Below, piece by piece: positions 21,262 to 41,835 of a DNA stretch of 64,000 nt (within the stretch, counting starts at the first letter, position 1; every line of letters begins with the position of its first letter). The stretch lies in NCBI GenBank assembly GCA_041483195.1, contig JBGPFC010000017.1, forward strand, positions 20,310 to 84,309. The letters are read 5' to 3'. This DNA is from Candidatus Eiseniibacteriota bacterium. GTDB taxonomy: Bacteria; Eisenbacteria; RBG-16-71-46. The position numbers and the translations under genes are program-made. Under the pieces are notes generated by a model. It ran no database searches. It saw nothing but the letters and a program-made list of their open reading frames with translations, and was not told the DNA's origin.

Positions 21262-21960
21262 CTAGCGGTACAGCACCTTCAGTGTTCCCCACGTCGTCGA
21301 ATGCGCCGGGGTCGCGAGACAGGCCGTGCTCGCGGGACTCGCCGAGTTGCGGAACGGCGTAGAGGCGGTGGCCGCCACGGAGAAGTCCGTGCTGTTGTTG
21401 TCCGTGTCCGTGATGCCGGCACCATTGCGAACGAGGCTCTGCGCGTTGGTCAGCACCGACGCCGGGGCGGTCTCGAAACAGTTGGCCGTGGGGCCGTAGC
21501 CAACGATGTCGATGAAAACCGGCGGGTTGCTGCACAGGTTGTTCAGGTTGGTGTTGTTGACCAGCGCGATCTTGCCCGTCGTCGCCGACATGCTGATGTT
21601 AAGGGTGGTGTAGTCTGGCACCACAGGCTGCGGCGCACCGTTCGTGCCGAGCGCGCCGAGCTCGATGAGCATGTAGTGGCATGGGCCGATGGAGGCGCCG
21701 GCCGGGAAGACGAACATGTTGCCCGCCACACTGCCGAAGCTGGTACCGGTCGCCGAGCCATACGCGAGCGCCCAGCCGAACAGGCTCACGGCCGAGCCGC
21801 TATCGTTGAACAATTCGACGTAGTCCTTGTTGTAGGTGCCGGTGCTGCCGCCGCCGCCGCCGTACACCTGGCTGATGCGGACAGCGCTCGACGCGAACGC
21901 CGCTGACGCCATCGCGAGACAGAGCGCGGTGGCAAGAAGACTGGTAGCGACCTTTTTCAT
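21262..21960 (-). CDS. Secreted lamin-tail-domain (LTD) protein with C-terminal TWGTLKVLYR tag
   Basis: Signal peptide ...AAFA; VRISQVYGGGG, DYVELFN, DTDNNSTDF. Confidence 0.85.
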   Translation of the reverse strand: MKKVATSLLATALCLAMASAAFASSAVRISQVYGGGGGSTGTYNKDYVELFNDSGSAVSLFGWALAYGSATGTSFGSVAGNMFVFPAGASIGPCHYMLIELGALGTNGAPQPVVPDYTTLNISMSATTGKIALVNNTNLNNLCSNPPVFIDIVGYGPTANCFETAPASVLTNAQSLVRNGAGITDTDNNSTDFSVAATASTPFRNSASPASTACLATPAHSTTWGTLKVLYR

Positions 21961-22300
21961 CGGGGTCCCCTCTCGGTTGTGGAAACTGTGGTGCGTGGAT
22001 TGCCGAGCGTCGCGCGCGATCACTTCGCGCTGGCTTGTCTCCGCAAGACCCCGATGCGGCCCTTCCCCGGAATCGTCCCGGCGCGCCTCACGGGGGCGCC
22101 GGCTGAAGGGGTGGGGGGGGACCGGATGCGCGACGAACTTGCCTTGGCACCTTCAAAGCCACAATGACGATAGCGAGTTTCGGGCTCGGTCGGCAAGCGA
22201 AAACGCGGGAGGGATGGGGAGATCGCGGCCGCGCGCGCTCAGCCCGAACTCCGGAACCCGTGGGCGGGCACCGGGTTGAATACCCGGGGCGATCTTTCGT

Positions 22301-23122
22301 TCAGTGGCTTGAAACTCCACGCGAGACTTCTGACCCGGCCGGAGCCCCCGGCCCCCGCCCGCGGCGTCGCGCGCGGAGGAAAGTGAGCCCCACGTTCGCG
22401 AGGAGAAAGAGGGCGAAGCCCCTCCTGAGCACGTCGCCCGGCGCCTTCTGCACCAGCGCCGAAGCCCCGGCCGCGCCCGCGGCCGCACCCAGCGCCAGCC
22501 ATCCGACGATGCGCCTCAGCATGTTTCCGTGCCGCGCGTGCTCGATCGCACCCACCGGCGCGGTCACCAGGATGACGGCGAGCGATGTGCCCTGGGCGAT
22601 CTGTTGTGGCATGCCGAGCAGGAGCGTGAAGGCAGGCACCGCGATGATGCCGCCGCCCACGCCCATGTAGCCCGCGAGCACGCCGACCGCGACGCCGAGC
22701 GCCAGGTCCAACGCGACGGCGGCGAGCCCGTGGGGAAGCGCGACGAGCGGAGCGGTGGGGAGCTTGAGCATCAGGCGCACCGCCACCAGCAGCAGGAATA
22801 TCGCGAACCCGAGCGTGAGATTGCGCGAGGACGTGCGGGTGGCGAGGCGCGCGCCGAGGCGCGCCGCGAAGACGCTCGATGCCCCGACGATGATCGCGGT
22901 CAGCCAGTCGACGTTCGAGTGCGATCCGTAAATGACGAGCGATGCCAGCGCGGTGGCGCCCACCACCGCGAGCGAGGTGCCGTGCGCCTCGTGCTGGGTC
23001 GCATGGAACCAGGCGGTCAGCATCGGGACCAGCAGGATTCCCCCGCCCACGCCGAACAGGCCACCGGCGATTCCCGCGACCAGCCCGGCAGTCAGCGCGC
23101 GCGCGCGATCGCCGGCGGTCAT
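22301..23122 (-). CDS. TauE/SafE family membrane transporter (two repeats)
   Basis: GLFGVGGGILLVP...AHGTSL and GYMGVGGGIIAVP...AQGTSL. Confidence 0.9.
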   Translation of the reverse strand: MTAGDRARALTAGLVAGIAGGLFGVGGGILLVPMLTAWFHATQHEAHGTSLAVVGATALASLVIYGSHSNVDWLTAIIVGASSVFAARLGARLATRTSSRNLTLGFAIFLLLVAVRLMLKLPTAPLVALPHGLAAVALDLALGVAVGVLAGYMGVGGGIIAVPAFTLLLGMPQQIAQGTSLAVILVTAPVGAIEHARHGNMLRRIVGWLALGAAAGAAGASALVQKAPGDVLRRGFALFLLANVGLTFLRARRRGRGPGAPAGSEVSRGVSSH

Positions 23123-23129
23123 CGCGCCG

Positions 23130-24044
23130 TCAGGGCTGGGGCGTCGCGATGCTGGCCGCGAGCGTGCGCTGGACGAGACGCGTCACGTCCGCGAAACGAG
23201 TCGCGTTGGTCGGGGCCCCGAGCACGACCGCGATCATGTCGCGGCCTTCGGTGTGCACCCAGGTGGCCAGACAGTAGCCGGCCTCGCTGATGAAGCCGGT
23301 CTTGCCGCCCATGATCTCGTAACGGCCGTACAGCATGCGATTCGTGTTCGCGATCTGATGCGGCCGCGTCGCGCTGCGAAACGCGTAGGACCGCGTGGTG
23401 CTGATCGGCTGGATCACCGGGTTGTTCGCGGCCACGCGGAGCAGGCGTGCCACGTCGGCGGCGGTCGAGACGTTGCGTTCGTCGAGACCCGTGAACTCGA
23501 CGTAGCGGGTATGCGTGAGCCCGAGCTCGAGCGCCTTCTGATTCATGCGCGCCAGGTAATTCTCGGGCGAGAGCCCCGATTCTCGGGCGAGCACCCGGGT
23601 GGCCACGTTGTCGGAACACATGAGGCTCATGTGCAGCAGGTCGCCGAGCGCGACCCGCTCGCGATTGCGCAGCTGGGAGTGGCCCGCCCCGTAGAGCTCC
23701 GTGCGCGTGACCTCGGCCATCCGATCGAGCTCGGGGCTCTGCTCGAGGAACACGAGCGCGGTCATGAGCTTCGTGAGGCTCGCGATCGGCACCGAGAGGC
23801 CCGAGTTCTTTTCGTACAGAACTTCGTCGGTCGCGGGGTCGAGCACGATCGCGTTGCGGGCGTAGCATCCGCCGGGAGGTGCGCGCCGCGCCCGCCGGCC
23901 CAGGTGACGGCGGTGTCCCGCCTGGCCAACCGAAGCCGTGTAGGTCTGAGTCGTCGAGACGGAAGCGGCGGCCGTCATGGCCGGGCACGCGATCAGGGCC
24001 AACAACAGCGCGGCCCCGACGCGTCGTACGGGGTGAAGCGACAT
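23130..24044 (-). CDS. D-alanyl-D-alanine endo/carboxypeptidase (S11, PBP7-like)
   Basis: SxxK ASLTK, SDN, KTG (GGKTGF); signal peptide. Confidence 0.92.
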   Translation of the reverse strand: MSLHPVRRVGAALLLALIACPAMTAAASVSTTQTYTASVGQAGHRRHLGRRARRAPPGGCYARNAIVLDPATDEVLYEKNSGLSVPIASLTKLMTALVFLEQSPELDRMAEVTRTELYGAGHSQLRNRERVALGDLLHMSLMCSDNVATRVLARESGLSPENYLARMNQKALELGLTHTRYVEFTGLDERNVSTAADVARLLRVAANNPVIQPISTTRSYAFRSATRPHQIANTNRMLYGRYEIMGGKTGFISEAGYCLATWVHTEGRDMIAVVLGAPTNATRFADVTRLVQRTLAASIATPQP

Positions 24045-24096
24045 GATCCCTCCAGAGCGCCCTCGTCGCGAGGGCTCGGGGCCGGTACCCTCCATG

Positions 24097-24125
24097 GTAT
24101 CGGTATCTGCGAGGAAATCACTTTA
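24097..24125 (-). promoter_or_regulatory. sigma28-like promoter candidate (TAAAG-N16-ACCGATAC)
   Basis: About 50 nt upstream of the S11 peptidase start. Confidence 0.45.
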
Positions 24126-24187
24126 GCGGCGTCTGCCGCGAGCCGTCAACGAAAACCCTGCCCACCCGCGGCTGGGTGGGATGCCCC

Positions 24188-24574
24188 TCAGTGGATCAGG
24201 GTGGAACGCAGGTGCGGATAGACGGGCTGGCGGACCGCGCCGCGCTGCCAGTCCCCGAGGCGGCAGAAGCCATCGACGCTCAGGTCCTCGACTTCTTCGG
24301 AGAACGCGTCGAGCCTTCCCTCGTGCAACGCCACCACCATGGTCTCGCCGCGAGCACGATTGAGGATCCTCACGATCTCGGGATTGAGGCAGGGCCCATA
24401 CACCAGGTCGACGAGCACGAGGCCCGGCAGCGAGCGCAGCAGGCGCAATGCCTCGCGAGGTCTTGCAGCGATCCGCACGCTGGTCCCGCGACCGCGGAGC
24501 GCGTTCATGTGTGCGGCATGCAGGCTGGGTGCTGCGCTGAGCAGCAGAACTTCACATGATCGAGGGGGGTTCAT
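24188..24574 (-). CDS. Atypical single-domain receiver (REC)-like protein
   Basis: EVLLLS..., EALRLL, PGLVLVDL, MVVAL, VDGF pattern; ATGA overlap with the upstream gene. Confidence 0.6.
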   Translation of the reverse strand: MNPPRSCEVLLLSAAPSLHAAHMNALRGRGTSVRIAARPREALRLLRSLPGLVLVDLVYGPCLNPEIVRILNRARGETMVVALHEGRLDAFSEEVEDLSVDGFCRLGDWQRGAVRQPVYPHLRSTLIH

Positions 24575-25119
24575 GAGAGAGATCCTCGTGGGCTGGGATC
24601 CAGGCCGAGGTCGACCCGGATCTTGTCCAGGCTGTCGTACAGGGATGGAAGGAATCGCCCCGCCGAAACCTCCGTGTCGAGGTCGAGGTTGCTTCCCACC
24701 GCGAGCCGACCCGCCCATGCCGAAGCCTCGTCGGCATCCCCAGCTGGGGCGAGCCGTCTCAGAAAACGGAGCAGCAGGCGCTGTGAATCCAGCGACAGCC
24801 GCTCCACGAAATCGATCAGCAACGTGCCGCCGTCCGTCGCACGCAGCAGGCTCCGGCCGGGCTCGGGGTCCGCGTTCGACAGCCAGCCCCGGAGCCCGGC
24901 CTGCACCGAAGCTTCGTCATGATCCGCGCGTACCGCGACGAACGCTCCGTAGCGCACCGGGCTCTCGCGATGGAATGCGATCGCGACCTCGGCCCGCTCG
25001 GAAGGCGTTCCCCGCAGCAACAGCAGGTGAATGAGGCTATGCCGGTGCATGCGGATGAGCTCGGCGGCCCGCGGCGCCGCCCTTCCGGGGAACAGATTCT
25101 GTTCGAGTGCGCGAGGCAT
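24571..25119 (-). CDS. Degenerate stand-alone sigma54-activator AAA+ domain
   Basis: LLLRGTPSERAEVAIAFH, AFVAV, DGGTLLIDFVERLSLDSQRLLLRFL, RLAVGSNLDL, GRFLPSLYDSL follow the bEBP motif order with catalytic residues lost. Confidence 0.75.
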   Translation of the reverse strand: MPRALEQNLFPGRAAPRAAELIRMHRHSLIHLLLLRGTPSERAEVAIAFHRESPVRYGAFVAVRADHDEASVQAGLRGWLSNADPEPGRSLLRATDGGTLLIDFVERLSLDSQRLLLRFLRRLAPAGDADEASAWAGRLAVGSNLDLDTEVSAGRFLPSLYDSLDKIRVDLGLDPSPRGSLS

Positions 25120-25125
25120 CGCCCG

Positions 25126-25437
25126 TCAGATCTTCGGTCGCCGCGCAGTCGCGGTGCTGACCGGGGTCGTGGCCCGGATCACGCGCGCCGCGGACTGACG
25201 GGGAGCGAAGCGGGCGCGCAGGTAGTCGCGGATCAGCGCGGCCTGGTATTCGAGCAGGGCGGTCGGCGCGAGCGTCGGGGTTGCCGCACCCTCCGAAGCG
25301 CCGCTCATGAGGGCGCTCGTGCCTCCGGTCGGGACGACGCCCGATCCCTGAGCGCTGGCGGGTCCGGCGAGAAGGCTGAGAGCGCAGGAAAGAATCGCGG
25401 CCAGGGCGATCGCAGCCAGCAAACGGGCGGCACGCAT
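25126..25437 (-). CDS. Small secreted hypothetical protein (103 aa)
   Basis: AGGAGG RBS; signal peptide ending ASA|Q. Confidence 0.7.
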   Translation of the reverse strand: MRAARLLAAIALAAILSCALSLLAGPASAQGSGVVPTGGTSALMSGASEGAATPTLAPTALLEYQAALIRDYLRARFAPRQSAARVIRATTPVSTATARRPKI

Positions 25438-25491
25438 GAAACGCCTCCTTCGAAACAGTGGTGAAACGCGGGGGGACCGCGACGCCACTTG

Positions 25492-25507
25492 GCGAGGACC
25501 GTGCCAG
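25492..25507 (-). promoter_or_regulatory. sigma54 -24/-12 promoter
   Basis: CTGGCACGGTCCTCGC, 55 nt upstream of the 25437 start. Confidence 0.7.
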
Positions 25508-25607
25508 CTGCCGTCCATCGATGATCCGTGCTCGCATCGTGCTTCCCGACAGAGACTTAGTGCGCTTCCGATCGGAAGAAGTAGCACGTCGTCGCATGGA
25601 GTCAAAT

Positions 25608-25713
25608 TCGCCGAAACCAGCGAAATGACGACATCGCCATTTATATAATCTGTTGTCTGTATTTTAGTTCAAGTTAATTTCAGCGATTTCGGCGAGTCCG
25701 CCGTTTATGGCGA
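25608..25713. promoter_or_regulatory. Candidate enhancer: repeated 16-bp boxes ending GCGA around an AT-rich IHF-like tract
   Basis: TCGC-N8-GCGA (25608), TCAG-N8-GCGA (25680), CCGC-N8-GCGA (25698); AT-rich tract 25639-25680 with CAACAGATTA on the minus strand. Confidence 0.45.
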
Positions 25714-28700
25714 GTCGAATCGAGGGTGTACTTGCGGATGCGGTAACGAAGAGACTGCTCCGTGAGCCCCAGATGGCGGGCGGCGAGGCTCTGGTTGCCC
25801 GATGCGAGTTCGAGCGCTTCCGCGATCGCGCGGCGCTCGAGCTTCTCGACCAGCTCCTTGAGGGTGCCGCCGCGCGGGATCTGGTCCGGGCGTTCTTCGA
25901 GGTCGCGCGGCGGAGGCGTGGGATGCAGCGCATCGCCGGGCGTCATGGCCAGCACGCGCTCGATGTAGTTCTGCAGCTCGCGCACGTTCCCCGGCCAATC
26001 GCTCTGCATCAGAGCCGGGACGAATTCCCGGGTGAGCCGCGGCACGGGACGTTCCTGCTGGCCGGCGTAGATCCGAACGAAATGCGCCGCGAGCGCCGGG
26101 ATGTCCGCCTTGCGCTCGCGGAGCGGAGGCACCTCGATCGGGATGACGTTCAGGCGGTAGAAGAGATCCTCGCGAAACGTGCCCCGCTCCACCGACTGGC
26201 GCAGGTCGCGATTCGACGCCGCGATGATGCGCACGTCCACCGGGATGGGTTTTCCTCCACCCACCGGGGTGATCTCGCGATTGGCGATCGCCGAGAGCAG
26301 GGCGACCTGCTGCTTGAGCGGCATCTCGCCGACTTCGTCCAGGAAGAGCGTGCCCCCGTCCGCCTGGACGAATCGCCCGTCGCGCCCGCCCACCTCGGTC
26401 GCGATGCGCGACAGGATTCCGAACAACTCGCTCTCGAGCAGCGTCTCGGGAATCGCCCCGCAGTTGACCGCGACGAACGGCTTGAGCCGCCGCTTGCCGC
26501 TGTGGTGCAGGACGCGGGCGATGAGCTCCTTGCCCGTGCCGTTCTCGCCGGTGAGCAGCACCGTGGCATTGACCCGCGCGGCGCGATCGACCACGGCGAG
26601 CACGCGTTGCATGGCGGAGCTCGTCCCGATCAGATTTTCCGCACGGAAGCGCGAGCTCACCTCGCGGCGCAACGAGAGGTTTTCTCCGACCAGCTGCTCG
26701 TTCACGCGCAGCACTTCCTGGTGGCCGCGGCTGTTCTCGATGGCGACGGCCATGAGCTGGGCGAAGCCTTCGAGCAGGGCGCGGTCCGCGTCGCTGAAGA
26801 CGTCGGGGCGGCGCGAGTCGTCGAGATAGACCGCCCCCACCACGCGTCCGCCGAGGTAGAGGGGGACGCAGAGGATGGACCGGAGACGCATGTCCATCAC
26901 GCTCTCCGAGCGGGCCTGCGGATCGGTCGGCGCGTCGGCGATCAGCAGGCTGCCCCCGCTCTCGGCCACGCGCTGCACGACCCTCCGGCTGTACCCGACC
27001 GCCGCGTTTCGGGTCTTCGCGTCCACCGCGCCGAAATCGGCCACCGGGGTGAGCTGCCCGGTCTCGGGGTCGGCCAGCAACAGCACGCCACGCTCGGCGT
27101 CGAGCTGTTCGACGGCGAGCCTCATCGCGCGCCGCGTGAGCTCCCCGAAGTCGGACATCGAATTGAGCAGCCGGCTCACCGCCTCGATCAGGTCGCGCTC
27201 GCGTCCCGCCGACGGGACGCCCGCGGCGCCCCGGCGGAGCCATTCCACGGTGAGCGCGAGGGTGGCGGCTCGACCGCGCGAATCGCCGAGCCGCTCGAAC
27301 GCGCCGGCCGCCACATCGAGCCAGCGCCCGACCGCGATGGTCGCCTCGCGGTCGGCCGCGAGCGCGAGCCGCGAGAAATCGAGCGCGGCGTGCGCGCGAT
27401 CGGCCGGCGCGGGAAGGGCACCCAGCCGATCGAGCACGGCCCTGGCGCCCTCTTCGTTCTCCGAATTCCGCGCTCGCGCGAGCGCGAGCTCGGACCGCAG
27501 CTGGTCCACGGTCGCTGCGGCATATGGTGCGTCGTGTCCGGCGAGCCAGGATCGCGACTCCTCGACCCGCGCCTTCGCGAGGTCGATCGCGCCGGCGCGG
27601 AGCGCGGCACGGCCCGCGAGGGCCAGCAGGACCGTGCGTCCCACCGATCCGGAGGGCCGCGGGCTCGCGAGCGCGCCGTCCCAGAGTTCGCCAGCTTCCT
27701 TCCAGCGGCCGGCGGCGATCAGCGATCGGCCCAGCTCGATACGGCACCAATCGATCTCGTCGGGCCTCGACAGCTTCATGCCCAGCGCGAGCGCGCGCTG
27801 CGCGATGCGGGCCGCTCGCGAATAGCGGCCCGCGATCCGATGCGCCTGGGCCAGCGAGCGCATGGCGAACGGCGTCTGCTGCGGCAGGTAGACCCGGCAC
27901 ATGCGCACCGCGGCCCGCGCCTGCGCGAGCGCGCCGGCTCGATCGCCCGTGAGCCCGTCGGCCTGCGCGAGATTCGCGATCGCGATCGCGGCGCCGTGCG
28001 GGCGTCCGTCCTCCAGCGCGAGCCGCGCCGCTTCCGCGACGGAGCGGCGCGCGTCCGGCCAGCGGCCGGCCTCGATCAGGATGACCGACCAGTTGAGCAG
28101 CAGCTCCTCGAGCGGCAGCCGCAACCCGTGCGCGCGCGCGCGCGCGATGGCATCGAGATAGAGACGCTCGGCCTCGGCGGCGCCCTGACGGGATTGCGCG
28201 ATGACCGCGCACAATCCCGTGGCCCGCAGCTCTCCCGGGAGATCGCCCGCGCGCGCGAACGCCTCAACGGCCCGAGCGGCCGTCGCCGCAGCTTCCTCGG
28301 CGAGGGTATCTTCCGCACGCCCGCTGATCATCGCGCCGGCGAGCGTCTGCGCCGCGACCCCGATCGCCAGCTCGTCGGTCGCGGACTCGCCGAGGGCCAG
28401 CGCATTCCGCGCCAGCTCGAGCGCGCCGGGCCGGTCGCCATCGAACAAGAGCCGCGCGGCCTCGTTGCTGAGAATGCGCGAGCGCGAAGCTTCGGGGAGG
28501 GACGCCGCGAGCGCCGTGGCGGCGACCCGCGCGGCGTCCGCGAGCTTCCCCGCGCGCAGGCATGCGGTCGACAGCTGCACCCAGCGCGCGGGGCGGTGAT
28601 CGGGCGCGGCATCCAGCGACAGGGCGCGCTCGATGTGCGGAATCGCCGAACCGTAGCGGCCGCGCGCCGCCCACTCGCGCGCGGCCCGCTCGTGCCACGT

Positions 28701-30791
28701 CGCGGCCGCGGCGTGTCCCTGCGATTCCGCGAGGGCCGCGGCGTCGGCGGCCAGCCGCGCGTCGGGCCGCGCCGCAAACGCCGCCGCCGCCGCTTCGAGC
28801 GCCGCGGCCGCATCGCCCGCGGCGCGCAGGTGAACGAAGCGCTCCTCATGCGAGAGCGGGCCGCTCTCGACCACGGCGCGGTGGAGCGCGCGCCGCGCAT
28901 CGGCATCGAGCCGCTCGAGCAACGCGGGCCCGAGCGCGGGCGGCGTGAGCGCGACGTCGCCGTTCTCCTCGCGGCGCGCGAGGCCGGCGGTCACCAGCGT
29001 GGCGGCGGCGTCATCGCCGGCCGCCGGCGCGATCGCGCGCATGCGCTCTGCGGAGGCCGGATGGCCGAACGCCGCGATCGCATGCGCCGCCTCCCGCGCC
29101 GGAGTGGGCAGCGCCAGGAGGCGTTCGAGCACCGCGGCCTCGAAGCCTAAGGCCTTGGGCAGGGCATCGAGCCGCTCCGCAACCAGCAGGAGCCCGGCAT
29201 CGCTGTCGCGCAGCGCGCCCCGCGCGGCGGCGGTGCGCAGCCGCTCGATGGCGAGCCCGGGGTGGCCGCCACTCTCGCGACGGAGGAACGCGAGCAGCGC
29301 ATCCGGCGCCGGCTCGCCGAGCCGCGCGGCGACGAGGCGGGCCAGACCCTCGTCGTCGAGCGGGCCCAGCGTCATCGTCTCCGCGTAGCCCGCCTCGAGC
29401 AGCATGCGCACGTCGTCGGGAGGCACGGGGGATTCCGCGCGGCGCGCCCACACCCACAACATGCGCGCGGCATCCGGATGCACGATCAGGCGCCTGGCGA
29501 ACGCGCGGGAGAGCGAGTCGAGGTGCCGCGTGTCGTCGAGCAGCATCAGCGGCGCGCCGCGCCGTGCCGCCGCGGCGCGACTCCAGCGGGCCGCGGCGTC
29601 GACCAGCGCGGAGAGCTCGTGTTCATCCAGCCCGACCGGATCCCCCGCGAGCGCCGCGCGGGTGCGTGGCGCCAGCTCGATCGCGAGGCTCGGATCGGCG
29701 CCGGCCTCTGCGGCGAGGCGGCGTGCGATGCGCAGCGCGACGTCGCCCCGGCGCTCGGCTCCGGCGCACGACAGCGAAACGACGCTGACCCCGGAGAGCG
29801 CGGCGCGCCCCGCGAGCTCCGAGAGCAGCGCGGACTTGCCGACGCCCGCCTCGCCGGTGAGCCAGACGAGGTGGGAGCGCGACGTGAGCGATCCGCGGCG
29901 CGCCTCGATCCTCGCGAATTCCCGCTCGCGCCCCGCGACCACCAACGCTTCCATGCGCGCTTCGAGCGGCCGCCGGGCCGCGGGGTGGATTCTCTCGAGC
30001 TCGCGCCGCACCTCGCGCGCATCGACCGGTCGTTCGGCGGGCGAGGGCGCGAGCAGCCGCAGCACCAGGCGTGCGAGCGCGGGCGGAGCACCGGATTCCT
30101 CGAGCGGACGGGTGGACGGCGGCCCCGCCTGCTGACGCCTCAGGATCGCCGATGGCCGATCGCCTTCGAAGGGCGGGGAGCCCGCGATCAAAGCATAGAG
30201 CGTCGCGCCCAGACCGTAGAGGTCCGACGCCGCGCCGGGCGCCTCGCCGCGGATCACCTCGGGCGCGGCGAATCCCGGCGTCCCGCGATGTCCGGCGCCG
30301 CGGGCGTCCCGCAGCCCCGCGAGCCCGAAATCGAGCAGGCGCACGGCGGCCGGAAGCGCGCCGGCGGCCGCCGCGTGCACCACCAGCAGGTTCGAAGGCT
30401 TGAGATCCCCGTGCACGACGCCCGCCGCGTGCAGCGCCTCGAGACCGGACGCGACCTCGGCCGCGACGAAGCAGAGCGCGGCCCAGTCGCCGCGGGTGAG
30501 CGCCCGATCGGGCGGCACGCCCGGCACGAACTCCATCGTGTAGTAGGGCGAGCCGTCGAAGTCGAATCCGAGCTCGTGCACAGCGATGATCGTCGGATGC
30601 CGCACGCGGGTGAGCGCCTCGAACTCGTGGCGCATGAGCTCGGGCGTCGCGAGCGGGGTCCGCCGTCCCAGCCGCTTGAGCGCGCACTCCGCGCCGGTCG
30701 TCTGATCGAGCGCGAGGAACACCTCGCCCATGCCACCGCGTCCCAGCGGCTTGAGGAGGAGGTAACGGCCGGCGACGCGCTCCCGCATCAT
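25680..30791 (-). CDS. Ser/Thr kinase - STAND-like P-loop - TPR - GAF - sigma54 AAA+ - Fis HTH regulator (1703 aa)
   Basis: GRGGMG, ALK, HGDLKPSN, DFG, APE; GEAGVGKS; GAF SILCVPL; GENGTGKE, FLDEVG, FREDLFYRL, WPGNVREL; GNQSLAARHLGL. ATGA overlap with the DUF885 stop. Confidence 0.93.
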   Translation of the reverse strand: MMRERVAGRYLLLKPLGRGGMGEVFLALDQTTGAECALKRLGRRTPLATPELMRHEFEALTRVRHPTIIAVHELGFDFDGSPYYTMEFVPGVPPDRALTRGDWAALCFVAAEVASGLEALHAAGVVHGDLKPSNLLVVHAAAAGALPAAVRLLDFGLAGLRDARGAGHRGTPGFAAPEVIRGEAPGAASDLYGLGATLYALIAGSPPFEGDRPSAILRRQQAGPPSTRPLEESGAPPALARLVLRLLAPSPAERPVDAREVRRELERIHPAARRPLEARMEALVVAGREREFARIEARRGSLTSRSHLVWLTGEAGVGKSALLSELAGRAALSGVSVVSLSCAGAERRGDVALRIARRLAAEAGADPSLAIELAPRTRAALAGDPVGLDEHELSALVDAAARWSRAAAARRGAPLMLLDDTRHLDSLSRAFARRLIVHPDAARMLWVWARRAESPVPPDDVRMLLEAGYAETMTLGPLDDEGLARLVAARLGEPAPDALLAFLRRESGGHPGLAIERLRTAAARGALRDSDAGLLLVAERLDALPKALGFEAAVLERLLALPTPAREAAHAIAAFGHPASAERMRAIAPAAGDDAAATLVTAGLARREENGDVALTPPALGPALLERLDADARRALHRAVVESGPLSHEERFVHLRAAGDAAAALEAAAAAFAARPDARLAADAAALAESQGHAAAATWHERAAREWAARGRYGSAIPHIERALSLDAAPDHRPARWVQLSTACLRAGKLADAARVAATALAASLPEASRSRILSNEAARLLFDGDRPGALELARNALALGESATDELAIGVAAQTLAGAMISGRAEDTLAEEAAATAARAVEAFARAGDLPGELRATGLCAVIAQSRQGAAEAERLYLDAIARARAHGLRLPLEELLLNWSVILIEAGRWPDARRSVAEAARLALEDGRPHGAAIAIANLAQADGLTGDRAGALAQARAAVRMCRVYLPQQTPFAMRSLAQAHRIAGRYSRAARIAQRALALGMKLSRPDEIDWCRIELGRSLIAAGRWKEAGELWDGALASPRPSGSVGRTVLLALAGRAALRAGAIDLAKARVEESRSWLAGHDAPYAAATVDQLRSELALARARNSENEEGARAVLDRLGALPAPADRAHAALDFSRLALAADREATIAVGRWLDVAAGAFERLGDSRGRAATLALTVEWLRRGAAGVPSAGRERDLIEAVSRLLNSMSDFGELTRRAMRLAVEQLDAERGVLLLADPETGQLTPVADFGAVDAKTRNAAVGYSRRVVQRVAESGGSLLIADAPTDPQARSESVMDMRLRSILCVPLYLGGRVVGAVYLDDSRRPDVFSDADRALLEGFAQLMAVAIENSRGHQEVLRVNEQLVGENLSLRREVSSRFRAENLIGTSSAMQRVLAVVDRAARVNATVLLTGENGTGKELIARVLHHSGKRRLKPFVAVNCGAIPETLLESELFGILSRIATEVGGRDGRFVQADGGTLFLDEVGEMPLKQQVALLSAIANREITPVGGGKPIPVDVRIIAASNRDLRQSVERGTFREDLFYRLNVIPIEVPPLRERKADIPALAAHFVRIYAGQQERPVPRLTREFVPALMQSDWPGNVRELQNYIERVLAMTPGDALHPTPPPRDLEERPDQIPRGGTLKELVEKLERRAIAEALELASGNQSLAARHLGLTEQSLRYRIRKYTLDSTRHKRRTRRNR

Positions 30792-32548: not shown

Positions 32549-32576
32549 GCGCGCGCGACCCCGCGTCGCGCGCGTA

Positions 32577-33305: not shown

Positions 33306-33508
33306 GGACGGGCTCTCCAGAAGTCGCACGAGGGGTGGGAACGATGCGCGCGGCGCAAGCGCGCGGGTCATCATAGCCAGCGTTCCCGGGCGAGACAACC
33401 GTACGGGGCCGGGCGCGCGGCGGGCGGCGGACCTGCGGGACGCGTGCGCGCCTTTGGAGTATGCTGCGCCCGGATGACCGCACCGCGCGCGCTCCCTCCG
33501 GAGGCCTC

Positions 33509-35229: not shown

Positions 35230-35245
35230 GCCCCGGCGCGACGCG

Positions 35246-36451
35246 TCACGCCGCGCCCGGCCCGGCGCCGAGCTTCGCGATCCGCCGCTCGATCACCCGC
35301 CGCAGCGCGCGCCACGCCGCGGCGATCTCGCGGCGATTGGCGCGGCAGTACGCGAGCGCCACCCGCGGATCGCTCGCCGCGAGCCGCGTCATCCCGCGGA
35401 ATCCCGGTCCGGCCAATCCCCGGCGCGCGGCCCCGCGTCCCGTCTCCTCGATCGCGCACGCGATCAGATACGGGAGGTGGCTGGTGCGGCCGAGCGCGCG
35501 GTCGTGCGCGGCGGGGCCGACGCGCAGCGGGCGCGCGCCCAGATCGCGAACCAGGGCCGCGATCACGCCCGGCACCGCGCCGCGCACCGGCATCAGCGCG
35601 AACGCCGCGTCCTCGAACAGATCGGCGCGCGCGGCATCGAAGCCGCGGCCCTCGCCGCCGGCGATCGGATGTCCGCCCACCGCGCGCACCCCGGCCGCCG
35701 CGGCCCGCTCCAGTGCGCGGGTGAGCGTCGCGCGCGCGCTCCCGGTGTCCAGCAGCGCAGCGCCGCGCGGAAGATGGCGCGCGGCGCGCGTGATGAGCGC
35801 GGGCAGCGCGTCCACCGGCGTCGCGATCACGGCGAGCGCGGCCGAGGCGCAGGCCGCCGCGAGCGACGGCGCGACCTCGTCGATCGCGCCGGCCTCGAGC
35901 GCCCGCGCGAGCACCGCGCGGTCCCGATCCCACCCGATCCGGCGCCACCCGCCCCGCCGCGCGAGCGCGAGCCCGATCGATCCGCCGATCTGGCCGAGCC
36001 CGATCAGCGCGACGCGCTTCGAGTGCTTCAGCGCGCCCGCCGCGCCGCGAGTGCGACCGCGTGGCGCGGGAGCGAGGTCGGGCCGCAGCGCGGCCGCGGC
36101 GTCGAGATAGACCGGCCGGAGCCGCGCCCCCGCCCGTACGCCGCTCACCGTGAGCAGCACGCGCACCACGCGGGGCATCGCGCCCGGGACGCCCATCTCG
36201 CGCGCGCCCAGCAGCGGCACGTCGGTCCAGCCCAGCCGCCGCGCGGCGTGCGCCGGAAAGTCGGCGTCGAGATCGGGTGTCGCCGTGAACACGGCGCTCA
36301 CGATCCGCGATGGCGCGATGCGATTCGCGTCGAGCAGCGCCAGCAGCAGGCGCGCCGTCGCGGCGTGGATCTCCTCCGCCCGGTTCGAAGCCACCTGCAC
36401 CGCGCCGCGCACGGCCGCGATGCCGCTTCCGGCGCCAGGGGTACGAGGCAT
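35246..36451 (-). CDS. aroH-tyrA: AroH-class chorismate mutase fused to prephenate/arogenate dehydrogenase
   Basis: VRGA, TPDLDADFPA, YL...LRPDL; then IGLGQIGGS, DTGS, GGHPIAG, HD...SHLP, GFRGMTRLA. Confidence 0.9.
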   Translation of the reverse strand: MPRTPGAGSGIAAVRGAVQVASNRAEEIHAATARLLLALLDANRIAPSRIVSAVFTATPDLDADFPAHAARRLGWTDVPLLGAREMGVPGAMPRVVRVLLTVSGVRAGARLRPVYLDAAAALRPDLAPAPRGRTRGAAGALKHSKRVALIGLGQIGGSIGLALARRGGWRRIGWDRDRAVLARALEAGAIDEVAPSLAAACASAALAVIATPVDALPALITRAARHLPRGAALLDTGSARATLTRALERAAAAGVRAVGGHPIAGGEGRGFDAARADLFEDAAFALMPVRGAVPGVIAALVRDLGARPLRVGPAAHDRALGRTSHLPYLIACAIEETGRGAARRGLAGPGFRGMTRLAASDPRVALAYCRANRREIAAAWRALRRVIERRIAKLGAGPGAA

Positions 36452-36536
36452 GAGCCCTCCGTTGGTCGCGGCGGGGGTCGCGAGACCGGCCCCGCGCGCG
36501 ATTTCCAGGGCGGCGCGCGACGCGCGCGCCGCACGA

Positions 36537-38153
36537 TCAGGCGCCGGGCGTGACGAGCGCGGCCGGGACGCTCGCGTCGTACAGCCGCTCGAAATATTCG
36601 CGCACCATGCGCTGCGCCGAGAACCGCGTCTCGCCCATCTGCACGCTCGCCGCCATCATGCGCTGCCAGCGCGCGCGGTCGCGCCACGCCGGCAGCACCT
36701 CGCGCTCGAGCGCATCGTAGAGCGCGCGCAGGTCGCGCTCGTCGTTTCCGGGCGTGCCGTCTGCGATCGCCCATCCGTTCACGCCGTGCTCGCAGCCCTC
36801 CGGCCACCAGCCGTCGAGGATGCTCAGGTTGAGCACGCCGTTCATCGCCGCCTTCATGCCCGAGGTGCCGCAGGCCTCGAGCGGCAGGATGGGATTGTTG
36901 AGCCACAGATCGCAACCGCGCACCATGGTGCGGGCCACGGCCATGTCGTAGTCCTCGAGGAACGCGACGCGCCCCGGATGCTCGCGCTGGGCGCGCGCGA
37001 GGCGCGCGATGATCGCCTTCCCGTGCTTGTCGTCGGGGTGCGACTTGCCGGAGAACACGATGTTCACGCCCTCGGTCTCGAGCAGCCGCGTGAGGCGCTC
37101 CTCGTCGCGCAGGATCAGGTCGCCGCGCTTGTAGGCGGCGGCGCGGCGCGCGAAGCCGATCCACAGCGCGTCAGGATCGAGCGAGACCCCGCTCGCACGC
37201 TCCACCCCGAGGCGCAGCGACGTGCGCTCCTTCTGGTGCGCCGCCCAGAGCTGCTCGGGATCGCCGTTCGCCGAGCGGATCGCGACGGACTGCCAGGTCC
37301 CGCGGTGCACCCCGTTGGTGATCGACGTGATCGGCGCGGCGTCCGTGACGTGCCCCCACATCGCGCGCGCGGTGCGCCCGTGCATCTCCGAGACCGCGTT
37401 CGCGGCGCGTGCGAGCCGCAGCCCGGCTGCCGTCATGCTGAATGGATCGCCTCCCAGCGCGCGCATCTCGGCCCCGGAGAGCTCGAGGCACGCGCCCATG
37501 CGCCTCAAGTCCTTGATCGAGTGCTCCTCGTTGCCCGCCTTGACCGGCGTGTGGGTGGTGAACACGATGCGCTGCCGCGTCTGGGCCCACGCCTCCTCGA
37601 ACGCCACGCCGGTCTCCATGCGTTCCGCGATCATCTCGACCCCGGCGAACACCGCGTGACCCTCGTTGAAATGGTAGGTCGAGATCGGAATGCCGAGCCA
37701 GTTCAGCGCGCGCAGGCCGCCGATGCCGAGCAGCATCTCCTGCGCGATCCGCACGTCGCTCCCCGCCTCGTAGAGACGGTGCGTGATCCACCGGTCCTCG
37801 CCGCGCACCGGCTCGATCAGGTAGAGCGGCACGTGGCCGTAGCGATCGGTGACCCACACCATGCACGGGACCTCACGGCCCCGGACCCGCACCCGCACCC
37901 GCACGCGCGTGTCGCGGAGGAAGCTCGAGTCGTAGCCGGGGAATTCCTCGAACGGTTCGCCGTCTTCGCCGATGCGCTGCACGCAGTAGCCGCGATCCCA
38001 GCGCAGCCCGACCGCCACCAGCGGCAGATCGAGGTCGCGCGCCGACTTGATGAAGTCGCCGGCCAGGATCCCGAGCCCCCCGGAGTAGATGGGGAACGAG
38101 TCGTCGAGGCCAAATTCCATGCAGAGGAAGGCGACGTGCGGGGTGCGCGACAT
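36537..38153 (-). CDS. glgP: Compact alpha-glucan phosphorylase (GT35)
   Basis: YSGGLGILAGD, FNEGH, FTTHTP, ARRAAAYKR, EACGTSGMKAAMNG. Confidence 0.95.
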   Translation of the reverse strand: MSRTPHVAFLCMEFGLDDSFPIYSGGLGILAGDFIKSARDLDLPLVAVGLRWDRGYCVQRIGEDGEPFEEFPGYDSSFLRDTRVRVRVRVRGREVPCMVWVTDRYGHVPLYLIEPVRGEDRWITHRLYEAGSDVRIAQEMLLGIGGLRALNWLGIPISTYHFNEGHAVFAGVEMIAERMETGVAFEEAWAQTRQRIVFTTHTPVKAGNEEHSIKDLRRMGACLELSGAEMRALGGDPFSMTAAGLRLARAANAVSEMHGRTARAMWGHVTDAAPITSITNGVHRGTWQSVAIRSANGDPEQLWAAHQKERTSLRLGVERASGVSLDPDALWIGFARRAAAYKRGDLILRDEERLTRLLETEGVNIVFSGKSHPDDKHGKAIIARLARAQREHPGRVAFLEDYDMAVARTMVRGCDLWLNNPILPLEACGTSGMKAAMNGVLNLSILDGWWPEGCEHGVNGWAIADGTPGNDERDLRALYDALEREVLPAWRDRARWQRMMAASVQMGETRFSAQRMVREYFERLYDASVPAALVTPGA

Positions 38154-38340
38154 GCGTGCTCCGAAAGGGAATCGTGAGTGCGTGGTCTCGTGCCGATGCG
38201 CAGGGCCGGGGATCATACGAACCCGGGCTCCGGCTGTCACGCGCGGCCGGGCCCTGAGTGCGAGAGCGGTATCGGCAGGCAGGCGCTTCGAACGCACGAC
38301 TCCGGGTGCGTCTTCGCGGCGCGGCGCGCGCGTTTCGGGC

Positions 38341-38691
38341 TTACGCCTTCCACCACATCTGCGCGGCGACCAGCACCAGGAACACGGCGAACACGCGTTG
38401 CAGCACGCGCGGCCGCAGGTCCAGCCCGATGCGGGCGCCCAGCCACGCGCCGAGCAGCAATCCCAGCGCGATCAGCATCGCGCCGCGGATCTCGACGGAG
38501 CCCTGGCGGTAGTACTGCCACGCGCCGAGCGCCCCGACCGGGAGCAGCAGCGCGGCGAGCGAGGTCCCGGTCGCGCTCTGGGGCTTCAGTCCCGCGATCA
38601 TGATGAGCGCGGGCACGATCACCACGCCGCCGCCGATTCCAAAGAGCCCGGCCAGGACTCCGGCGCACAGGCCGATCGTGAGATAGATCAC
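38341..38691 (-). CDS. Half-size (single repeat) TauE/SafE membrane protein
   Basis: GLFGIGGGVVIVP...ATGTSL; 116 aa. Confidence 0.85.
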   Translation of the reverse strand: MIYLTIGLCAGVLAGLFGIGGGVVIVPALIMIAGLKPQSATGTSLAALLLPVGALGAWQYYRQGSVEIRGAMLIALGLLLGAWLGARIGLDLRPRVLQRVFAVFLVLVAAQMWWKA

Positions 38692-38739
38692 GGAACGTCC
38701 TCCGATCCCCGACCGCGACGCGGCCGGCGCGCACGCACG

Positions 38740-40077
38740 CTACGTCGCCGCGGTGTGCGCCTGGTCGGCCGCAGAGCCTTCCATCACCCACCGCACGCCC
38801 TTCGAGCAGGGGCAGGTGCCCCCGACCCGTTTGAGCTTGGGCATCTTCATGATAGCGTCCTTCACGCTCAGCGCACCGGACGCCACGCCGCGCAACGCCT
38901 CCGCGTAGTTCCGCATGTCGCGGCTCGCGACGTAGCCTTCGTTGAGGTTGTGCGCCAGGTGCCGCAGGTATTCCTCGGCGTCGGTGTACGCCTCGCCGTC
39001 CACGCCCACCATGCTGAACGCGGACTCGCCCTTGCGGCGGAAGAAGCGAGGATCCGGCACGCGCAGCAGGTCTTCGTGCCGCACCCCGCGGTGGGTCCCG
39101 CGGGTCTGCTCGAGCGCCTCGAGCGCGGCCTCGGCCTTGTCCGGGGCGTCTTCCGGGAAGCGCGCGCGGATGAATCGCGCGTTGATGTCGCGGATCATCT
39201 TGCGCACTTCCTCGATGTAGCGATCCTGCGCCTCGCGGTTCTTCATGTCCTTGAAGCCGAAGCGCACGTTGGTGTCACCGCCGCGCTCGTCGCCGAACAT
39301 CTCGAGGGCGCGCGGGAACCACTTGTTCACGGCGTGCTGGATCGCGGTCATCGTGATGAACGGGTCGCCCTGCGCCGCCTTCTGCGCCCAGCGCCGGAGC
39401 GGGATCACGCCCGCCGCGAGATGGAACGCCTCCTCACGCAACATGGGCGGCATGCTGTCGGCCATCGGCTTGTACGCGCACACCTTCTGCATCGTGAGCT
39501 GGTACTTGCCGACGCGGTCCACCAGCGCCGCGAACGCGATGTTGTCGATGAAGGAGTCGTAATCGAGGTTGAACGCGTCGAGGACGTGATTGCCCGTCTG
39601 CATCGACAGGATCTCCTCGACCATCTGCTCGCCCGTCACGCCGCCCGAGACGTGAGTCCAGTCGCTCGACAGCAGCAGGTGGAGCATCTGGTAGCCGTGG
39701 CGCAGCTCCTCCGCCATCACGCGCAGCACCCAGTAGCGGTCCTGGTCGTCGGTCGCGCGCTCGAGCGTGCCCGCGTGCTGCTGGATCGAGCCGAACTCGG
39801 TGGACGCCTGCGCGCGGATGATCGCGAGCAGATGCTGCGCCTCTTCCTGGGTGAGCTCGTCGGGCTTCATGCGCTTCTTCTCGCCCGCGTGGTCGCCGAT
39901 CTGGATCAGGTCGCTGGTGCCGAGCTCCAACTTCGCGCACAGACAGAACTCCTCGTCCTTCGGGAAGTACCTCTGCCAGTGCTCGAGGAGCGAGCCGTAG
40001 TCCTTGAAGTTGTGCCGGCGCCAGTGTTCGACGGCGTCGTGGTATTTCTTGTCCAGCGAGATGTTCTCGACTTTCAT
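38740..40077 (-). CDS. BoxB/PaaA-like ferritin-like di-iron oxygenase
   Basis: QASTE, EELRH, DRVGKYQL, EEAFH, WFPRALEMFG. Confidence 0.85.
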   Translation of the reverse strand: MKVENISLDKKYHDAVEHWRRHNFKDYGSLLEHWQRYFPKDEEFCLCAKLELGTSDLIQIGDHAGEKKRMKPDELTQEEAQHLLAIIRAQASTEFGSIQQHAGTLERATDDQDRYWVLRVMAEELRHGYQMLHLLLSSDWTHVSGGVTGEQMVEEILSMQTGNHVLDAFNLDYDSFIDNIAFAALVDRVGKYQLTMQKVCAYKPMADSMPPMLREEAFHLAAGVIPLRRWAQKAAQGDPFITMTAIQHAVNKWFPRALEMFGDERGGDTNVRFGFKDMKNREAQDRYIEEVRKMIRDINARFIRARFPEDAPDKAEAALEALEQTRGTHRGVRHEDLLRVPDPRFFRRKGESAFSMVGVDGEAYTDAEEYLRHLAHNLNEGYVASRDMRNYAEALRGVASGALSVKDAIMKMPKLKRVGGTCPCSKGVRWVMEGSAADQAHTAAT

Positions 40078-40087
40078 CGGCTGCTCC

Positions 40088-40549
40088 TCAAGAACCAGGC
40101 GCGAGAGCGATTTCCAATGCCTGCAGCGGCGAAGGCGTGAACCCCAGCGCGTTCAGGAACCCGGAGATCGCGGGATCGCGGCGATCCACCAGCGTGCGCA
40201 CCGAGGTCGCGCCCGCCGCGCGGAAGTGGGCGCAGATCGCATCGAACATCTGCTTGCCCAGATCGCGCCCGCGGTGGTCGGGGTCGATGCCGAAGCGCTC
40301 GATCCAGCCGCTCGGCTCCTCGATCCCGAACTCCCCGGCCCGCACGTCGCCGAGCAGGAACCCCACCACCTTGCCGCCGATCTCCGCGACCTGCGATGCC
40401 CCGGGATCGCGGCGCAGGTAGTACCCGACGCGCTGCTCCCAGACGTCCGGCCGGTACACGCCCGTGATGCGCTCGTCGATGCGTACGATGCTTCCAATAT
40501 CGAGCTCGTCGAGCGGCCGGATGCGGGCCGTGGACTGCACTTCGGGCAT
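40088..40549 (-). CDS. GNAT acetyltransferase (BadL-like subfamily)
   Basis: IVRIDERITG, GEFG, GIDPDHRGRDLG, FLNALGF. Confidence 0.85.
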   Translation of the reverse strand: MPEVQSTARIRPLDELDIGSIVRIDERITGVYRPDVWEQRVGYYLRRDPGASQVAEIGGKVVGFLLGDVRAGEFGIEEPSGWIERFGIDPDHRGRDLGKQMFDAICAHFRAAGATSVRTLVDRRDPAISGFLNALGFTPSPLQALEIALAPGS

Positions 40550-40642
40550 GAAAGGCTCCGATCGGAGGTGGGCTGCGACACGGAATCGGCGGGAGATTAA
40601 CAGGTTTACCGCGAAAACTGCACGTCGAGGCGCCCGCGACGG

Positions 40643-40667
40643 CGTGGTTTGGTGACACAAAACCACG
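40643..40667. promoter_or_regulatory. Palindromic operator candidate
   Basis: CGTGGTTTGGTG-A-CACAAAACCACG (one mismatch) in a divergent intergenic region. Confidence 0.5.
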
Positions 40668-40899
40668 AAAACGCCCGGGAATTCCAAGCTCGACGCGGGT
40701 TTTGCCTTGCGTGCGGGTGGCCGAACGTTCACCATTGTCAGGTCAATTTCAAGTGACGGAACCCCCCGCTTCGATATGAGTGCGCGCGCTCGCGTGTCAC
40801 CGCGAGGACATCGACGCCCCTCATACGCCGCGCCCGTCGGCCTGACCCTGGAACGATTTCTCCTGGCATCGCAACCGTCATGACCGGAGGCACCTTCAT

Positions 40900-41835
40900 A
40901 TGACCGCACGATACTCCGCGCTTCTACTTGCCGGGGCTCTGCTCGCGGCGGGCGTGCAGGGCACCGCGATCGCGCAGTCGGCGCTCGACTCGCCCGCGAT
41001 CACACCCGTCAGCTCGGGCACCGCCAAGGCCACGCTGACCATCACCGCCGGACCCAGCGGCGCGCCGTACGGGTTCACCATCTTCTGGATGACCCAGGCC
41101 GACTTCGACGCGAACGGCAGCCAGTGGTGGTCGTATGGCAACGCCGTTCAGGGCGAAGCCAACTACTGGGGAACCCCGACGCTCAATACCTGGGACGGCA
41201 CGCTCACCAGCTTCGTGCTGGGTCCGAACGAGTCGGCGACCGTCGAGATCGGCGACCTGTTCGACGAGACCGGCGTCACGACCAACAACGCGAACGAGCT
41301 GGACTACGCGGGGGACTACGTCTTCTGCGCTTTCGCGAACGGGCCGAGCCCGCCGGAAAACAGCGAGTACTCGAAGAATCACAAGCCGCCGCCCCCGCCG
41401 CCCCGTCAGTGCAAGTTCACGCAGGGCTACTGGAAGAACCACCCGGGCGCATGGCCGGTGCTGCCGGATTGCGGCGGCGGATTCCTGAAGCTCGGCACGG
41501 TCTGTTACACCAAGGCCCAGTTGCTGTTGATCTTCAATCATCCGGCCGGCGGCAACGGCCTCGTCTCGCTCGCGCACCAGCTGATCGCGGCGAAGCTGAA
41601 CATCCTGAACGGCGCCGACGGCTCGCTCGTGGCCGCGACCATCGCCGCCGCCGACCTCCAGATCGGCGGGCTCGTCGTTCCGCCGATCGGGGGTGGCTAC
41701 CTTTCGCCATCGAGCACGTCGCACAAGACCGACATTCTCGACGACTTCAACCAGGGCAAGCTCGGCTCGAATCAGTGCAACCCGACGGCGGCGCGGGTGA
41801 GCACCTGGGGCACGATCAAGGCCCTCTACCGCTAG
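40900..41835 (+). CDS. Secreted two-domain protein with C-terminal TWGTIKALYR tag
   Basis: GGAGG RBS; signal peptide; beta domain; poly-Pro linker; FTQGYWKNH...LAHQLIAAKLN domain. Confidence 0.85.
   Translation: MTARYSALLLAGALLAAGVQGTAIAQSALDSPAITPVSSGTAKATLTITAGPSGAPYGFTIFWMTQADFDANGSQWWSYGNAVQGEANYWGTPTLNTWDGTLTSFVLGPNESATVEIGDLFDETGVTTNNANELDYAGDYVFCAFANGPSPPENSEYSKNHKPPPPPPRQCKFTQGYWKNHPGAWPVLPDCGGGFLKLGTVCYTKAQLLLIFNHPAGGNGLVSLAHQLIAAKLNILNGADGSLVAATIAAADLQIGGLVVPPIGGGYLSPSSTSHKTDILDDFNQGKLGSNQCNPTAARVSTWGTIKALYR

Follow-up and report, generated by a model that had tools for sequence, protein, structure and literature searches.

A short C-terminal tag on unrelated, predicted exported proteins of Eisenbacteria and other phyla: a candidate sorting signal

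Results

Two genes of the window share a C-terminal tag

The window analyzed here is a stretch of 64,000 nucleotides (C17:20310–84309) of the 93-contig genome of an uncultured Candidatus Eiseniibacteriota soil bacterium (4.17 Mb, 70% GC; the source genome below), and its subject is a short peptide tag at the extreme C-terminus of two otherwise unrelated, predicted exported proteins, one with an LTD domain (Table 1). Both end in TWGT[LI]KxLYR followed directly by the stop codon. C-terminal sorting signals are the means by which annotation recognizes surface and secreted proteins, and each new signal has led to an enzyme or a machine, as with sortase, exosortase, rhombosortase and the system for type IX secretion (T9SS). 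The tag described here is real, abundant, ancient and uncatalogued.

Table 1. Features of the window (positions without a contig name) and of other contigs of the source genome.
Feature	Position	Strand	Description
LTD gene	21262..21960	minus	232-residue predicted exported protein with tag; PF00932 LTD, 42 bits
Tag of the LTD protein	21265..21312	minus	TPAHSTTWGTLKVLYR; stop codon 21262–21264; tail model 39.0 bits
Gene of the 311-residue protein	40900..41835	plus	predicted exported protein with tag; FN3-like sandwich plus helical domain; no Pfam family
Tag of the 311-residue protein	41785..41832	plus	TAARVSTWGTIKALYR; stop codon 41833–41835; tail model 40.0 bits
SprA	C8:53808–57326		403 bits
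PorU-like C25-type protein	C11:80734–85020		127 bits to the PorU model; own T9SS-type C-terminal domain
Tandem tagged paralog pair	C43:4421–8452		‘PxGYxHxxxG’ motif
TPR protein gene	19062–21086	minus	674 residues
TauE/SafE-family gene	22301–23122	minus	full-length, 273 residues
Sigma-54-activator fragment	24571–25119		short
Kinase fusion gene	25680–30791	minus	1703 residues; Ser/Thr protein kinase, AAA_16, GAF, sigma-54 activator, Fis-type helix-turn-helix
TauE/SafE-family gene	38341–38691	minus	only 116 residues

The LTD protein ends in ...CLATPAHSTTWGTLKVLYR, then stop, and its N-terminus resembles a signal peptide, with a likely start at MKKVATS... although a longer open reading frame with a GTG start extends to 22023. 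The 311-residue protein ends in ...CNPTAARVSTWGTIKALYR, then stop. The two tails agree at 10 of their final 16 positions with the stop codons in the same register, each is preceded by a cysteine 13–14 residues before the tryptophan, and with the tails removed the proteins show no match to each other at E < 1e-5, all as an earlier note on this DNA, made from the sequence of the window alone, had described.

An AlphaFold2 (AF2) model of the 311-residue protein has a predicted local distance difference test (pLDDT) value of 87, and its best PDB matches are FN3 folds; the final 20 residues fall to pLDDT 51–70 and contain a short helix from W303 to Y310. The tag is under purifying selection. The family of this protein has more than 1783 homologs, every named one of which is a ‘hypothetical protein’, and among the best 120 the motif WG.[LIVMF]K..[YFW] is kept at the end in 100, a further 15 ending in WGxLKVLHR. 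In an alignment of 50 sequences W303 and K307 are invariant, and the tail is conserved over more than 100 homologs that are 47–70% identical overall.

The tag is modular and recurs throughout the source genome

A six-frame search of the 4.17-Mb genome with WG.[LIVM]K..[YFW] returned 35 matches, in 31 of which exactly R and the stop codon come next, the other four lying 2, 3, 4 and 13 residues before the stop. A hidden Markov model (HMM) of the 20-residue tail, run on the 3391 proteins predicted by a purpose-made codon-usage gene caller, placed 34 proteins at 24.7 bits or more and one at 14 bits (TFGALKARYR), with noise at 8 bits or less. A proteome-wide pattern search had been suggested in the earlier note, and the carriers it brings out are many, 35 in this genome.

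The tails follow the consensus [VT]-P-[AVT]-[RE]-x-x-[ST]-W-G-x-[LIV]-K-x-x-[YF]-R-stop. The 31 strict tails of the source genome never vary at W(−9), G(−8), K(−5), Y(−2) and R(−1). In 30 of them T or S occupies position −10, the residues found at −6 are L, I, V and M, and T-P-[AT]-R stands upstream. The upstream motif of 127 tails from other genomes is [VT]-P-[VTA]-[E/R], position −13 being R in the source-genome family and E elsewhere. A short amphipathic helix had been suggested as a possible form of the tail, for which the AF2 model gives low-confidence support; in the final ten residues of the carriers amphipathicity is greater for a strand (moment 0.54, against 0.32 in other proteins) than for a helix (0.42, against 0.33). 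The expected lack of a transmembrane helix held, with no transmembrane-like windows past residue 45 in 32 of 34 carriers.

The 35 carriers, of 147–344 residues, fall into 24 families after removal of the tail, six with several members and 18 singletons. Pfam domains were found in 11 of 34 carriers (23 have none) and comprise F5/8 type C, GEVED (two), DUF7450, phosphoesterase, NHL propellers (three) and LTD (four), one of the latter fused to plastocyanin/cupredoxin. NCBIfam adds one choice-of-anchor V domain and one NHL protein with a strong match to the ScyF ‘PEP-CTERM’ model. The tag is therefore as portable as had been supposed: it sits on unrelated passenger domains and, in nearly all cases, at the extreme C-terminus. 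By a crude heuristic of our own, applied alike to carriers and to size-matched controls (other proteins of 150–350 residues), signal peptides are enriched among the carriers, as had also been anticipated (29/34 against 260/1389, Fisher p = 3e-16). Of the 35 carriers, 21 have a cysteine 11–30 residues before the C-terminus, as do 403 of 3142 other proteins.

The proposed comparison with known sorting-signal HMMs gave no match: in 34 carriers the tail was hit by no model of Pfam (E up to 0.01) or NCBIfam (E up to 0.1), nor did any match the tails of the two window proteins even at E up to 1–10. The literature searched, with subscription journals outside its coverage, contained no description of the tag.

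Spread across genomes and phyla

As a DNA pattern, WG-x-[LIVFM]-K-x-x-[YF]-R-stop is present in 190 of 201 Eisenbacteria genomes (a phylum sample that includes one unpublished genome, G014), mostly in 10–60 copies each, while a reversed-pattern control matched twice in all 201, where the real pattern matched thousands of times. The recurrence in Eisenbacteria that the earlier note had mentioned is thus real, and record labels (Latescibacterota) confirm the one in Latescibacteria. A scan of 185,579 species genomes found at least 131 loci, 127 being real tails among the matches listed. Most of the listed loci are labeled Candidatus Eisenbacteria, others Krumholzibacteriota, Latescibacterota, Fibrobacteraceae/Fibrobacter sp. 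and Gemmatimonadota; a few other labels belong to short contigs, where binning errors may be the cause. Five genomes labeled as other phyla have 23–46 tags each and zero control matches, and in the phylum of one of them the tag occurs in 55 of 61 genomes, in up to 51 copies.

A 30-column profile of the tail, searched against 1.84 billion cluster representatives (50% identity), found 2034 proteins at E ≤ 0.001, a number of tagged clusters that is a lower bound. Among the best 150 matches the motif lies at most three residues from the end in 146, and all of these proteins have 449 residues or fewer with no domain after the tag. Four metagenomic small proteins (P0369, P0412, P0480 and P0408) bear two to four tandem C-terminal copies, which either tag duplication or the merging of adjacent genes could have produced.

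Some genomes without a pattern match nevertheless carry variant tails. A carrier ortholog in G035 (L169) ends in ...TWTRIKRLGR, and two in G086 (L232, L233) end in ...SWGAIKKSLNEEGQN and ...SWGRLKQGIQGDN; these keep [ST]-W-x-x-[IL]-K and lack the Y-R-stop ending. The conserved core would therefore be [ST]-W-[G]-x-[ILV]-K, with a replaceable or extendable [YF]-R-stop, and it follows that absence judged by the pattern is unreliable and that pattern searches undercount carriers. Use of ‘zero-tag’ genomes as negative controls was dropped for this reason.

In Bacteroidota the picture is different in scale. The pattern matched in 29 of 121 sampled genomes, six having one control match each, and of the 30 matches listed 3 seem accidental. 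The others read WG[SM][IL]K[AE][LM]FR-stop, nearly always as a single copy per genome, and the positive genomes form one subgroup, since they recur at every fourth place in an evenly drawn sample. Five loci (L244–L248, in G338, G366, G310, G350 and G378) encode one conserved protein of 132–139 residues, which combines a signal peptide with an FN3-like domain and ends in ...VSHxxSSVKRTWGSIKAMFR; no Pfam or NCBIfam family matched it. It is the sole tag carrier in those genomes, its gene often lies beside a maf-like gene, and it could be the simplest handle on whatever reads the tag.

The tag and the T9SS C-terminal domain at the same paralog boundary

In the source genome 137 proteins end in a FlgD_ig/Por_Secre_tail-type domain, the kind of C-terminal domain (CTD) found on T9SS cargo; the set was defined by an HMM built from neighbors, with Pfam/NCBIfam confirmation on three examples (g2852, g1637 and g2403). 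None of the 137 carries the tag, and their median length is 686 residues, against 245 for tag carriers (p = 4e-14).

As judged from aligned paralogs, the tag replaces this domain of 70–100 residues at the same domain boundary. The g2851 protein (222 residues, tag) and the adjacent g2852 and g1637 (291 and 307 residues, T9SS domain) have 51–53% passenger identity, and the tag of g2851 begins exactly where the linker and 80-residue domain start in g2852 and g1637. In g1643 (L015) a choice_anch_V domain (NF041895) is joined to the tag and in its paralog g2403 (L251) to TIGR04183, so that the same passenger bears different C-terminal signals, as in choice-of-anchor families. Two GEVED and three NHL carriers similarly have four domain-bearing paralogs in all (one GEVED, three NHL). 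T9SS-domain genes lie directly beside tag genes in six cases, against 2.2 expected (p = 0.02).

The ends of the two signals show some likeness. R ends 68% of the T9SS domains of the source genome, after four hydrophobic and two basic residues, and 17% of other proteins, an ending that would loosely resemble the [LI]-K-x-[LI]-Y-R of the tag; hhalign found no alignment between tails and T9SS domains. Like the type A CTD, the tag is modular, forms the very end of proteins that are exported by Sec and have nothing else in common, can be swapped at the same paralog boundary, has a conserved basic residue near the end with hydrophobic residues before a final basic one, and occurs, as far as examined, only in lineages with T9SS genes. 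It differs in its length of 16–20 residues against 45–100, in its own invariant W-G, in having only small carriers and in a copy number independent of the T9SS. Shortened T9SS signals have precedents: the relevant passages of PMC11969387 describe long seven-strand and short three-strand CTDs in Prevotella (P. intermedia), both cleaved and glycosylated, the three-strand forms being functional T9SS signals. Those of PMC11285876 map the signal of HBP35 to its final 22 residues, with a conserved Lys in strand beta7, and report that replacing the last residues blocks secretion and extending them does not. The replaceable or extendable [YF]-R-stop ending of the tag agrees with the tolerance of extension by T9SS C-termini in that account.

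T9SS machinery and the search for a reader

The source genome encodes the T9SS core of SprA/Sov, PorV and PorU, with PorU (461 bits) directly upstream of PorV on contig C33, and has seven PorV/PorQ-family paralogs. SprA was found in 195 of the 201 genomes of the phylum, in all five of the tag-rich genomes labeled as other phyla, and in 29 of 29 pattern-positive Bacteroidota, compared with 96 among all 121 sampled (Fisher p = 5e-4). The PorU-like protein of contig C11 (Table 1) shares that contig with five tag carriers and the PorV paralog g1407.

Phylogenetic profiling for a receptor, which had been proposed together with other tests, was run on the PorV paralogs and gave an ambiguous result: g1407 tracks the tag, though only in part. 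Its specific orthologs occur in 5 of 5 tag-rich and 1 of 5 pattern-negative genomes, and it was not accepted as the tag reader, being absent from tagged genomes of families f4 and f11 and present in G091, which has no pattern match. Proteins of the g1057 type were also set aside as readers, since in Bacteroidota they are not confined to tag-positive genomes, and exosortase (XrtH) was rejected because the tail lacks a transmembrane helix. TIGR03519 (PorP family) found nothing above cut-off in the source genome. A complex prediction for the tail of P0003 (residues 272–311) with the PorV-type g2604 and g1407, run with alignments and without controls, scored 0.00 and weighs neither for nor against either as reader. 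The neighborhoods of 35 carriers held no recurrent non-cargo partner, only T9SS-domain proteins, common regulators and ATP-binding cassette (ABC) components.

Discussion

The distribution, architecture and exchange of the tag suggest that it is quite probably a sorting or localization signal, whichever of two kinds of machinery, T9SS-linked or separate, would read it. The proposal that it serves export, anchoring or processing is thus supported by its many carriers, their enrichment for signal peptides and the absence of a matching model. The accompanying statement that no machinery had been described for it stands insofar as no Pfam or NCBIfam model and none of the papers searched describes the tag. 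It may be too strong in that the reader could be a known machine, because the examined tag-bearing lineages all have a T9SS and the tag is interchangeable with its domain. Reading by T9SS-linked machinery is the best single mechanism, through a link that is correlative, and we favor it tentatively, as falling just short of probable.

In such a mechanism, the tag would be a portable C-terminal address of about 16–20 residues, composed of a short Pro-containing linker motif before W-G...R, on small proteins of a single domain that pass the inner membrane via Sec. A periplasmic or outer-membrane receptor within or coupled to the T9SS (the translocon SprA, a PorV/PorQ-family shuttle or the PorU attachment complex) would recognize W-G...K...[YF]-R, possibly as an edge beta-strand, and hand the cargo on to the surface of the cell or into the medium. 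Cleavage or attachment might take place at the P-x-[R/E] linker, a candidate site for either. The tag could then represent the extreme end of the known shrinkage of T9SS signals from 7 to 5 to 3 strands.

Several observations weigh against reading by the T9SS, beginning with the correlative nature of the link. The T9SS is near-universal in the tag-bearing phyla, and co-occurrence therefore has little power to discriminate. Since the positive Bacteroidota genomes all belong to a single subgroup, the SprA that they share adds no independent evidence. In family f7, 39 of the 41 genomes have SprA and yet each has just 0–5 tags, therefore the T9SS alone does not predict use of the tag. G117 and G129, which are 91–92% complete, have 43–47 tags and no SprA match. 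No tag gene of the source genome adjoins a gene of PorV/PorP type, T9SS-domain genes within five genes of tags (10 against 8.2) are not significantly enriched, and among the 201 genomes g1407 is missing from families f4, f5, f7 and f11, of which f4 and f11 reach 20 tags. The tag itself lacks motifs B and D of the T9SS CTD (B, D (GxY) and E), with only a motif-E-like basic residue, is too short for the Ig-like fold regarded as essential in that domain, and is not detected by any T9SS CTD model (TIGR04183/PF18962/PF13860), whereas g2852, g1637 and g2403 do match.

The tag might instead be read by a dedicated machine independent of the T9SS, for example a receptor or translocon of its own in the outer membrane, or a processing enzyme that phyla of the Fibrobacterota–Chlorobiota–Bacteroidota (FCB) group have in common. 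The tag and the T9SS domain would then be alternative surface routes, comparable with Haft's ‘choice-of-anchor’ families, and several unrelated anchors are indeed known on choice-of-anchor V and ScyF-like NHL domains. That W-G and K are strictly invariant speaks for a specific reader, no known sorting-signal model matches the tail, its architecture is unlike that of any type of T9SS domain, the small size of the carriers (147–344 residues against a median of 686) suggests a different route constraint, and some T9SS-positive lineages (f7 and most of the 121 sampled Bacteroidota) are nearly free of tags. The neighborhoods of 35 carriers, however, offer no candidate machine and the distribution so far stays within T9SS-bearing phyla, and we regard such a machine as rather unlikely. 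In a closely related form, which we would rate a shade higher though still as doubtful, the tag might label an unrecognized pathway of outer-membrane export or surface attachment, with its own reader and ancient in the FCB superphylum, that would serve tens of small cargos per genome in most lineages and be reduced to one FN3-like cargo in the Bacteroidota subgroup.

In the remaining explanations the tail is not a transport signal. It could be a peptide for retention or docking, a short basic, aromatic and amphipathic segment by which small periplasmic or surface proteins would be kept on a membrane, on lipopolysaccharide or peptidoglycan, or on a common scaffold protein. The AF2 model gives a free, low-confidence helix (303–310, pLDDT 51–70) after a well-folded domain; the final 10 residues are amphipathic, interfaces typically contain W, K, Y and R, and tandem tags (P0369, P0412, P0480) are what docking avidity would lead one to expect. 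Nine residues, however, would not suffice to anchor a protein stably in the plane of a membrane, the invariant W-G and K at a fixed distance from the stop suggest that a protein recognizes them, and a mere anchor in place of a secretion domain would put the paralog in a different compartment; we regard docking as improbable. Much less probable again is a degron, or a signal for removal of a pro-peptide, acting through a periplasmic tail-specific or PDZ-domain protease and so setting the level or activation of the carriers. The free C-terminal position of the tail is conserved, and the conserved P-x-[R/E] motif 4–5 residues upstream could be a cleavage site, but the C-terminal residues favored by known PDZ proteases are hydrophobic, and this tail has Arg last; nor is a degron expected to substitute for a secretion domain in paralogs or to occur on dozens of unrelated conserved proteins per genome. 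That the resemblance has no function of its own and reflects chance or the common descent of carriers could draw on the six multi-member families of paralogs and is refuted by the counts, leaving it next to no probability: 24 families are unrelated after removal of the tail, 31 of 35 genome-wide matches share one register to the stop, reversed-pattern controls are near zero, and the tail persists in the many diverged homologs of the 311-residue protein.

Comparison with other known signals helps to place the tag. The type B CTD of the T9SS has a cognate PorP/SprF carrier, as in the SprB–SprF pair, and the carrier gene usually follows. Like the tag it is an alternative class of C-terminal signal, and its dedicated partner in the outer membrane comes from the PorP/PorV superfamily; it is a domain and the tag a peptide, however, and carrier genes do not adjoin the tag in the source genome. 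The beta-signal of outer-membrane beta-barrels has an aromatic C-terminal residue and closes the barrel. It too is a short, conserved, free C-terminal peptide of strand-like amphipathicity, and it is read at the outer membrane, whereas the tag ends in Arg (31/35) and its carriers have soluble folds (FN3, LTD, propellers, cupredoxin). The tripartite signals (LPXTG/sortase, PEP-CTERM/exosortase, GlyGly-CTERM/rhombosortase and MYXO-CTERM/myxosortase; see bioRxiv 10.1101/2023.06.07.544157) are short, portable and C-terminal on varied exported proteins, as the tag is, and decorate the same ‘choice-of-anchor’ passengers. They consist of a motif, a transmembrane helix and a basic cluster; the tag stops 9 residues past its W and has no hydrophobic stretch or basic cytoplasmic tail. 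Lacking the helix, it therefore cannot be held in the inner membrane for an enzyme of the sortase type.

In typical Eisenbacteria about 1% of all genes bear the tag, which marks at least 2034 clusters at 50% identity. Several of the phyla that bear it are abundant in soil and sediment and have almost no cultured members, and nearly all carriers are annotated as ‘hypothetical’. Should the T9SS read the tag, a peptide of fewer than 20 residues would replace a folded domain as secretion signal, which would alter the view of cargo selection by the translocon and offer a very compact export tag for engineering. Should the T9SS not read it, an unknown envelope machine remains.

Other genes near carriers and in the window

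The TPR protein gene of the window lies directly downstream of the tagged LTD gene, and a TPR paralog, g0207 (632 residues), is four genes from a tandem tagged pair on contig C2, which may be coincidence. The same may be true of an aminotransferase paralog that recurs near carriers on C2, C17 and C53. The tandem tagged pair on C43 adjoins an ABC_tran_2-type membrane protein and an ABC ATPase, and pairs of this type recur with the tag in genomes labeled Fibrobacteraceae and in several unlabeled metagenome-assembled genomes. Elsewhere in the window, a short sigma-54-activator fragment stands just upstream of the large kinase fusion, and two genes belong to the TauE/SafE family, only one of them full-length.

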